The notes beneath the pieces are model-generated. The model saw only the letters and a program-made list of their open reading frames with translations, searched no databases and was not told the DNA's origin. Source: Escherichia coli (GTDB lineage Bacteria; Pseudomonadota; Gammaproteobacteria; Enterobacterales; Enterobacteriaceae). Taken from it: a stretch of 13,959 nucleotides of DNA. Location: assembly GCF_003334315.1 (NCBI RefSeq), contig NZ_QOWR01000079.1; one strand, written 5' to 3'. This document shows positions 6,782-6,845 of this stretch, in pieces (the stretch's first letter is position 1; each line of letters starts with the position of its first letter). Position numbers and translations under genes: made by a program.

Positions 6782-6790
6782 ATACAAAAA

Positions 6791-6814
6791 ATGGGACGGC
6801 ACGCACCGTCCCAT
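6791..6814 (+). other. Intercistronic stem-loop between ilvE and ilvD
   Basis: Perfect 9-bp inverted repeat atgggacgg / ccgtcccat with a 6-nt loop (cacgca), beginning 10 nt after the ilvE stop. There is no strong U-tract, so this is not a classic terminator. Confidence 0.5.
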
Positions 6815-6845
6815 TTACGAGACAGACACTGGGAGTAAATAAAGT

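Follow-up and report, generated by a model that had tools for sequence, protein, structure and literature searches.

Comparative evidence for a conserved sense-strand RNA hairpin between ilvE and ilvD of Escherichia coli and other Enterobacterales

The spacer between ilvE and ilvD of Escherichia coli carries a hairpin that is conserved across Enterobacterales and that, as the substitutions found among its relatives show, is under selection as an RNA structure of the ilv sense transcript. The sense strand is also enriched in U after the stem across lineages, with a full terminator in some genera. The reading that we favor, with a confidence just short of even, is that the hairpin serves as a leaky terminator or a barrier to 3' exonucleases, letting the levels of the ilvGME and ilvDA mRNAs differ; the effect in E. 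coli is probably small. The kind of element is known (an intercistronic stem-loop acting as a leaky terminator or a decay barrier).

The window, that is, the whole stretch of DNA that was analysed (13,959 nt), covers the E. coli rrn-distal / hdfR-maoP-yifB / ilvLXGMEDA / ilvYC / ppiC region. By correspondence with a RefSeq homologue (L001, where positions 6153-7082 equal 5852-6781 of the window), ilvE occupies 5852-6781 on the + strand and ilvD occupies 6846-8696. The ilvG gene of the window is intact (548 aa), and thus the source strain is not K-12-like in that one respect. The ilvGMEDA cluster is a textbook operon, known to be controlled by its leader attenuator, by internal promoters and, in K-12, by ilvG polarity; a 1992 paper on its multiple transcripts reportedly described an abundant ilvE-sized transcript of ~1.1 kb on Northern blots. 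In RefSeq the spacer has no annotated feature.

The locus is nearly uniform within the species. Of 5,426 complete E. coli genomes, 5,423 match a 201-nt probe around the hairpin, under ilvE and ilvD, with 95-100% identity, and the spacer itself is at least 99% identical in 5,276 of 5,425 E. coli records. The number of its copies per genome is one at the median and two at the highest (5,425 E. coli genomes), which rules out a repeat element of the REP/BIME, ERIC or boxC type. The 64-nt spacer is 100% identical in an O16:H48 genome, and a 61-nt sequence from the MG1655 Term-seq data matches the window exactly, so that data obtained for MG1655 can be applied to the window. In MG1655 the hairpin lies at ~3,953,413-3,953,440, as calculated by offset from the sequence anchor.

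The features of the spacer and its borders, in window coordinates, are the following.

6779-6781, + strand: ilvE stop codon TAA (from the sequence and the correspondence with L001).
6785-6791, + strand: CAAAAAA tract 5' of the stem, the last three A's of which pair with UUU after the 3' arm.
6789-6799, + strand: 5' arm of the hairpin, AAAUGGGACGG, 11 nt, 100% complementary, with the GC core at 6793-6799 (from the fold and covariation).
6800-6805, + strand: hexaloop CACGCA, near-invariant in Enterobacteriaceae.
6806-6816, + strand: 3' arm of the hairpin, CCGUCCCAUUU (from the inverted repeat, the fold and covariation).
6813-6821, + strand: weak U-containing tail AUUUACGAG after the GC core, too poor for the consensus terminator scan.
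6817-6830, + strand: A/C-rich unstructured linker ACGAGACAGACACU from the hairpin to the ilvD Shine-Dalgarno sequence (from the sequence and the fold in context).
6831-6848, + strand: ilvD Shine-Dalgarno sequence GGGAG (6831-6835) and ATG (6846-6848).

An earlier, sequence-only reading of this DNA described a perfect 9-bp hairpin with a 6-nt loop at 6786-6815, in a 64-bp spacer, directly after the ilvE stop and before the ilvD ribosome-binding site. The length of the spacer is right, with TAA at 6779-6781 and ATG starting at 6846 leaving 64 nt between them, and so are the arms and the loop (atgggacgg at 6791-6799, cacgca at 6800-6805, ccgtcccat at 6806-6814) and the placement, the gaps being 7 nt from the stop codon to the hairpin and 14 nt from the hairpin end to the ilvD GGGAG. 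The inverted repeat is indeed perfect, but its extent was understated: it spans 11 bp (AAATGGGACGG / CCGTCCCATTT, 6789-6799 / 6806-6816), and the range given earlier clips its last base.

The hairpin is stable and is not a chance feature. The predicted RNA fold of the hairpin has dG -18.1 kcal/mol (z = -5.7), and that of the whole spacer has dG -19.0 (z = -4.8), neither being matched by any of 200 dinucleotide shuffles. The pairing probability of the GC core is ~1.0 in both 200- and 400-nt contexts. A perfect 11-bp repeat with a loop of 3-8 nt is expected ~0.02 times per 14 kb by chance (13959 x 6 / 4^11, assuming uniform base composition).

Spacers of relatives were taken from three sources: species-representative genomes scanned with the IlvD N-terminus and then folded, exact-protein look-ups of IlvE from named organisms, and a single scan of metagenomes, whose pattern was fixed by the end of IlvE and the beginning of IlvD (C- and N-terminus, respectively) and constrained the spacer only in its length, 46-76 nt. 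Pooled, they yielded 93 distinct ilvE-ilvD spacers, 82 of which contain a GC-rich hairpin with at least seven Watson-Crick pairs; these come from Enterobacteriaceae, Erwiniaceae, Yersiniaceae, Morganellaceae and other groups. Measured against dinucleotide shuffles, the spacer folds have a median z of -3.0, with z < -2 in 77 of the 93.

The E. coli-type hairpin, GGGRCGG - CACGCA - CCGYCCC, is identical in Salmonella and is also found in E. albertii, Klebsiella pneumoniae, K. aerogenes, K. michiganensis, Raoultella, Citrobacter, Superficieibacter and Enterobacter-like genomes. Hairpins of other sequence occupy the same place in Pantoea and Erwinia (GGGCGUC-NNNN-GACGCCC), in Cronobacter (CGGGCGG-CCUGAG-CCGCCCG), in Tatumella, Rahnella and Buttiauxella, in Yersinia, Serratia, Photorhabdus and Proteus, and in Budvicia, Edwardsiella, Sodalis and Aeromonas. 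Hairpins are lacking in the Vibrio-type spacers (12-44 nt) and in the spacer of an AT-rich Enterobacterales MAG, and in Citrobacter werkmanii the place of the hairpin is taken by a highly structured insert of 158 nt, which we take to be ERIC-like. In unrelated hairpin families the ilvD ATG lies at an almost fixed distance (~25-30 nt) from the hairpin, and the gap between the stop codon and the hairpin ranges from 2 to 38 nt. GGAG is present within 18 nt of the ilvD ATG in 91 of 93 spacers, and a CAGAC-like motif in the linker region in 42 of 93.

Covariation was studied in a gap-free alignment of 36 distinct Enterobacteriaceae-type sequences (A3), in which the 11-pair stem is paired in 89.9% of cells. 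Two-sided changes are seen in five of the 11 stem pairs; the pair 16-29, for instance, is represented by A-U in 18 sequences and by G-C in 17. The covariation score was reached by none of 500 column shuffles, and all slid registers of the stem are paired in less than 50% of cells.

As palindromic DNA folds alike on both strands, wobble pairs were used to separate the strands, a G.U pair on one strand being an A.C mismatch on the other. In the sense alignment there are 18 one-sided (G.U-type) cells, compared to one in the reverse complement of the same alignment (A4), where 84.8% of cells are paired. A strand-neutral hairpin finder applied to all spacers yielded 42 internal G.T oppositions and seven A.C ones, six of the latter being spurious AT-rich picks or the ERIC-like insert. 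Counted as distinct events per hairpin cluster and position, there are 26 sense G.U events against a single A.C event (binomial p = 4e-7); an example within the species is the E. coli strain ECOR29, where a T-A pair is changed to G.U. The C-to-T bias of the coding strand associated with transcription could make a small contribution here, but a 26:1 ratio is beyond its reach. The asymmetry of wobbles shows that the hairpin is maintained as RNA of the ilv sense strand, and it rules out a DNA cruciform, an operator or an RNA of the antisense strand as the conserved form.

The tails following the stem tell the strands apart less simply in E. coli itself. Its + strand has the stem of an intrinsic terminator (a perfect 11-bp stem with six G-C pairs, dG -18.1 kcal/mol) and lacks the U-tract: the tail AUUUACGAG provides only AUUUACGA, with three U's, and the consensus scan, which requires at least five T in 8 nt after the stem, lists no + site here. 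The sequence-only reading had seen no strong U-tract, which is correct for the + strand, but the minus strand was overlooked. In the reverse complement the stem is followed by TTTTTTGTATTT, and it is on this strand alone that the scan calls a terminator-like site, ranked third overall (dG -19.1), in which 12 stem pairs precede TTTTTTGTATTTA, with the stem ending in TTT and TTTGTATTTA coming next. The terminator look of the reverse complement is given by the CAAAAAA tract, which reads as a T-run on the minus strand; within this tract, columns A7 and A8 of the alignment are at least 90% conserved in Enterobacteriaceae.

A wider comparison reverses this picture. The tail was taken as the 8 nt that follow the outermost G-C pair, and the values were averaged within each of 23 hairpin clusters. 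On this measure the sense tails contain 3.44 T (43%) against a spacer background of 21% T, and the antisense tails contain 3.10 T against a background of 30% (A on the sense strand). At least five T in 8 nt are found after the sense stem in five of 23 clusters, with 0.30 expected (P = 1e-5), and after the antisense stem in three, with 1.4 expected (P = 0.16). The Enterobacteriaceae cluster, to which E. coli belongs, is atypical, having 3.2 T of 8 in the sense tail and 5.1 T in the antisense one, and it is for this reason that the consensus scan points to the wrong strand. Canonical terminators on the sense strand are found in Tatumella saanichensis (L180, CGCGGACCUCGGGUCCGCG-GUUUUUUUUG), Cronobacter (L200, GCUUUUGUAG), Photorhabdus (L010, UUUGUUUUG) and the genomes L123 and L185 (stem followed by UUUUGCUGUUAUUU) and L099 (UUUUGUAG). 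The case may serve as a worked example of how the asymmetry between G.U and A.C picks out the functional strand of a palindrome; here it overruled the strand to which the terminator consensus had pointed.

Hairpins that are stable but lack U-tracts have been described at the 3' ends of those upstream operon segments that are stabilised, with malE-malF as the model (Dar and Sorek 2018; PMC5927463), and the ilvE-ilvD element resembles this class in being a stable U-tract-less hairpin at the 3' boundary of ilvE, conserved in relatives. Taken together, the selection on the sense strand, the repeated independent U-tracts and the documented class of 3' protective elements make a role at the 3' end the best supported one. 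Located just after the ilvE cistron, the hairpin would most likely form and protect a 3' end of the sense ilv mRNA. Termination by a minority of the polymerases would make it a leaky intrinsic terminator, and in transcripts cut downstream the 3'-to-5' exonucleases would trim back only to the stem. By either route the upstream ilv(G)ME segment would outlast or outnumber the ilvDA segment, uncoupling transaminase B from the dehydratase and the deaminase within one operon. E. coli would then represent the weak extreme of a continuum, with the full terminators of other genera at the opposite extreme. For E. coli, both the formation of 3' ends or of a stability difference at the hairpin and the magnitude of the effect, probably small, are inferred.

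Published RNA data bear on such an effect. The sequence-only reading had proposed Term-seq coverage of the hairpin region as a check; the published tables for MG1655, LB at OD 0.4 included, contain no 3' end there (Adams et al. 2021; PMC7815308). In the LB OD 0.4 table no 3' end is listed on either strand from the ilvL attenuator to ilvY, the consecutive entries being 3,950,400 (the attenuator) and 3,957,809 (ilvY). Neither ilvE nor ilvD is named in any of the four tables, and no entry falls within 3,953,300-3,953,699, the place of the hairpin in MG1655, where weak ends below the threshold may still lie. A prominent 3' end at the E. coli hairpin is unsupported under the conditions tested; a weak end, or one formed only upon derepression, is possible. 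The suggestion that the hairpin is a partial terminator thus gains from the relatives with a real U-tract and loses from the weak U-tract of E. coli and the absence of an MG1655 Term-seq end. [quoted passage not shown]

Against the 3'-end reading stand the lack of an MG1655 Term-seq end, the lack of a call of differential decay for ilvE-ilvD, the tail of three U's and two features that a simple barrier leaves unaccounted for, the near-invariant loop and the near-constant 25-30 nt to the ilvD ATG.

The second of these features is what one would expect if the hairpin served the 5' side of ilvDA, a reading that we consider unlikely but the most serious of the alternatives. In one form, similar to papBA, RNase E would cut in the A-rich stretch upstream, leaving the hairpin near the 5' end of the ilvDA mRNA, where it would be protective; in the other, the hairpin would insulate the ilvD ribosome-binding site, shielding it from the upstream sequence or from scanning by RNase E. 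The near-constant distance to the ATG, set against a distance of 2 to 38 nt from the stop codon, speaks for this reading, as do the position of the hairpin next to the conserved ilvD initiation region, the A-rich single-stranded tract 5' of it in Enterobacteriaceae and the fact that a mechanism of the papBA type is documented in E. coli operons. Still, the unstructured stretch 6782-6788 (AUACAAA) has no RNase E motif RN|WUU, and strong U-tracts after the stem, as seen in some lineages, would be counterproductive for a hairpin that served ilvD. In the RNase E map of Salmonella (PMC5222698) the sites listed include one in an ilvE 5' UTR, none at 4,133,200-4,133,599 (the spacer) and no ilvD 5' UTR entry, which argues weakly in the same direction. 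As for the insulator, flipping the 5' arm in silico shifts the accessibility of the Shine-Dalgarno sequence and AUG from 0.37 to 0.33 in the 200-nt context and from 0.64 to 0.45 in the 400-nt one, changes that are slight and inconsistent. Insulation of the ilvD ribosome-binding site was rejected on this small effect, and the earlier idea that the stem shapes ilvD translation finds little support, its disruption in silico barely shifting the accessibility of the site.

The other feature, the loop, is more conserved than a barrier needs. Its columns A21, G23, C24 and A25 never vary in the alignment of 36 distinct sequences, and conservation at C20 and C22 is at least 90%, compared to an average of 0.77 for synonymous third positions of the first 13 ilvD codons at the same loci. 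This unusual conservation is the basis for the reading, improbable in our view, that the hairpin is a sequence-specific recognition site, its loop being bound by a protein or a small RNA that regulates termination, processing or ilvD expression. We likewise give a low probability to the specific version in which recognition of CACGCA in Enterobacteriaceae, and of UUCGUUC in Yersiniaceae and Morganellaceae, sets the continuation from ilvGME to ilvDA. It is favored by the loop UUCGUUC(G/C) being common to Yersinia, Serratia, Photorhabdus and Proteus despite their differing stems (CAGGUGG, CAGGCGG, GCGAGUAG) and flanks; both loops can be read as tandem 4-mers, G-CAC-G-CAC and G-UUC-G-UUC. Against it, clades with the GGGCGG/CCGCCC stem differ in the loop (CACGCA, CAUGGA, CCUGAG, CAAGAG, AGUCCU), the loops of Erwiniaceae vary freely, and no conserved complementary sequence is present within -930 to +700 nt, so that long-range pairing of the loop was rejected, with no conserved TGCGTG or GAACGAA partner. 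Nor is there a match to a known RNA family: in Rfam 15 the spacer has none at the gathering threshold and only chance-level ones (E > 1) at a permissive threshold. The different loops on the same stem and the variable loops of Erwiniaceae suggest that a constraint limited to clades, rather than a shared recognition code, may underlie the loop conservation. If recognition of the loop were true, it would be a second, undescribed control point inside the classic ilv operon.

Slightly less probable still is that the hairpin has no present function, being a relic terminator of once-separate ilvGME and ilvDA units or simply a palindrome in the DNA, such as an operator or a repeat. RefSeq carries no annotation for the element, and we know of no experimental phenotype or 3' end for it, but the compensatory and wobble changes point to purifying selection for RNA pairing, an operator bound by a protein would keep its sequence rather than its complementarity, and the near-identity of the spacer in E. 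coli records likewise speaks against this reading. A relay mini-ORF at 6791-6838, starting with the ATG in the 5' arm in the ilvE frame and ending on the ilvD Shine-Dalgarno sequence, is probably fortuitous: stops occur around the ilvD start in every frame, sequences in which the stem pair covaries have lost the ATG, and in Klebsiella the frame reads straight into ilvD.

Finally, an intrinsic terminator on the minus strand, shielding ilvE from antisense RNA coming out of ilvD, is very improbable and was rejected as the selected function, since its textbook appearance in E. coli (dG -19.1, third-ranked in the scan) and the T-richer minus tail of the Enterobacteriaceae cluster (5.1 vs 3.2 of 8) are outweighed by wobble selection seen on the sense strand only (26 vs 1 events, 18 vs 1 one-sided cells), a minus T-run that is not enriched across families (P = 0.16) and that Erwiniaceae, Proteus, Edwardsiella and Sodalis do not have, the absence of any 3' end of the minus strand at this place from the MG1655 Term-seq tables, and the failure of our scan to find a promoter-like site from 6816 to 10548 on that strand.

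A literature search for the ilvE-ilvD spacer, the ilvE and ilvD mRNA, internal promoters and the hairpin sequence found no mention of the element; the exact hairpin 20-mer occurs, among the text matches listed, in two strain-engineering papers only, and the mentions of ilvE in PMC9881157 concern a ppGpp riboswitch of Firmicutes. Hence the element, itself unannotated, is apparently undiscussed in the searchable literature. Its interest is that it offers one more point at which the stoichiometry of transaminase B to dihydroxy-acid dehydratase and threonine deaminase could be set after initiation, which is directly relevant for the engineering of strains producing valine, isoleucine and isobutanol, where the levels of ilvE and ilvD are tuned separately. 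Should its effect in E. coli be limited to slight polarity, it is just another ordinary stem-loop between cistrons.

Among known systems, bidirectional terminators (an A-tract, a hairpin and a T-tract) resemble the element in the A-run before and the T's after a perfect GC-rich palindrome, and its minus-strand reading passes the scan. However, such terminators typically lie between convergent genes, as does the ilvC/ppiC palindrome of the window (12870-12896), whereas ilvE and ilvD are co-directional in one operon, and selection is detectable on the sense strand only.

The papBA operon has a similar layout: a hairpin between cistrons, with an AU-rich single-stranded stretch before it and the initiation region of the downstream gene after it. 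Unlike papBA, ilvE-ilvD has no RN|WUU upstream of the stem and no known cleavage site, and the U-tracts downstream of the stem in its relatives favor a function for the upstream segment, at its 3' end.

Leaky intrinsic terminators inside operons are known in E. coli in rpsU-dnaG and before rpoB. As in these cases, where distal expression is lowered, a GC-rich hairpin lies between two cistrons, and a full U-tract is present at the homologous place in Tatumella, Cronobacter, Photorhabdus and the genome L123; the E. coli hairpin differs in being followed by AUUUA only, in not passing the sense scan and in having no called Term-seq end.

The closest likeness on the protective side is to the malE-malF class (PMC5927463). 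There are differences: the malE-malF element is a multi-copy REP repeat and the ilvE-ilvD hairpin is single-copy, no stable 3' end or 2-fold difference in stability has been reported for ilvE and ilvD, and the elements of that study lie mostly inside the downstream coding sequence, while the ilvE-ilvD hairpin is intergenic. Common to both are a sense stem-loop placed right after the upstream cistron and conserved in related enterobacteria, and a tail without the U-tract needed for efficient intrinsic termination.

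The conserved stem-loop of the 64-nt ilvE-ilvD spacer overlaps a short reading frame that begins inside its 5' arm:

6791-6838, plus strand: 15-codon ORF, MGRHAPSHLRDRHWE and a stop codon, with the ATG within the 5' arm of the hairpin

This ORF is in the ilvE reading frame and starts 9 nt past the ilvE stop. Its TAA, 7 nt upstream of the ilvD ATG, shares bases with the ilvD Shine-Dalgarno sequence. A start codon is present at this position in 35 of the 38 Enterobacteriaceae-type spacers, and in 25/38 the end of the ORF falls from -8 to +7 nt relative to the ilvD ATG. Against a meaningful mini-ORF, stops occur in all three frames near the ilvD start, and spacers in which the stem pair covaries have lost the ATG. 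The ORF is probably fortuitous.

The hairpin loops differ by clade. The loop CACGCA (6800-6805) is kept within Enterobacteriaceae, while UUCGUUC(G/C) is common to Yersinia, Serratia, Photorhabdus and Proteus, in which the stems differ (homologous loci L216-L219, L009, L010, L090). Each of these loops can be read as tandem 4-mers, and no complementary partner for either of them was found in the nearby sequence. Natural variation is also seen within E. coli. In the spacer of ECOR29 (AAAGGGGACGG...CCGTCCCTTTTATTAG; locus L214) a G.U replaces the T-A pair and the hairpin tail is richer in U, and the loop of strain S1-INA-02-B (L215) is UACGCA; these two spacers would serve as ready-made test alleles.

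Other features are observed in the spacers of relatives. The Citrobacter werkmanii spacer (positions 1343-1500 of locus L004) comprises 158 nt with a fold of -59.8 kcal/mol, and here the small hairpin is replaced by what we take to be an ERIC-like repeat (GTAAGTGGCTGGGGTGAGCGAGGCAGCCAACGCAC...GTGAAGTATG). The 91-nt structured spacer of Enterobacter sp. Bisph1 (L003) is related to it. Moreover, a CAGAC-like motif (YAGAY) immediately 5' of the ilvD Shine-Dalgarno sequence (6817-6830 in the window and homologous positions elsewhere) is found in 42 of the 93 distinct spacers, the spacers that carry it coming from lineages that are otherwise unalignable. This motif may belong to the initiation region of ilvD, or be targeted by a regulator.

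At the head of the operon, ilvG (3926-5572) is an intact ORF of 548 aa, so the K-12 ilvG frameshift, with its polarity on ilvEDA, is absent from this strain. The Rfam match RF02744, 'Rev39_5p_UTR' (157 bits, 3617-3906), spans the leader/attenuator region including ilvL and ilvX; this Rfam family is in effect the ilvL leader.

Three further inverted repeats are located between or next to genes of the window:

1792-1814: 9-bp perfect hairpin AAAAAGGGC-GAAAT-GCCCTTTTT, between the convergent maoP (yifE) and yifB
12839-12859: 9-bp perfect hairpin CCCTCTCCC-TGT-GGGAGAGGG, immediately past ilvC, adjoining GTCGGGGTGAGGGC
12870-12896: 13-bp perfect palindrome CAAGGCCTTCTCC / GGAGAAGGCCTTG, between the convergent ilvC and ppiC

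The maoP-yifB hairpin, at which MG1655 Term-seq places the 3' end 3,948,451 (+) (PMC7815308), is a bidirectional terminator. In the same data, the 3'-end region of 3,959,467 (-) contains the sequence of the 13-bp palindrome, and the listing also includes that of the 12839-12859 hairpin (PMC7815308). The terminator scan finds the palindrome terminator-like on both strands, and it is a classic bidirectional terminator. The hairpin immediately past ilvC presumably resembles a boxC-type repeat.
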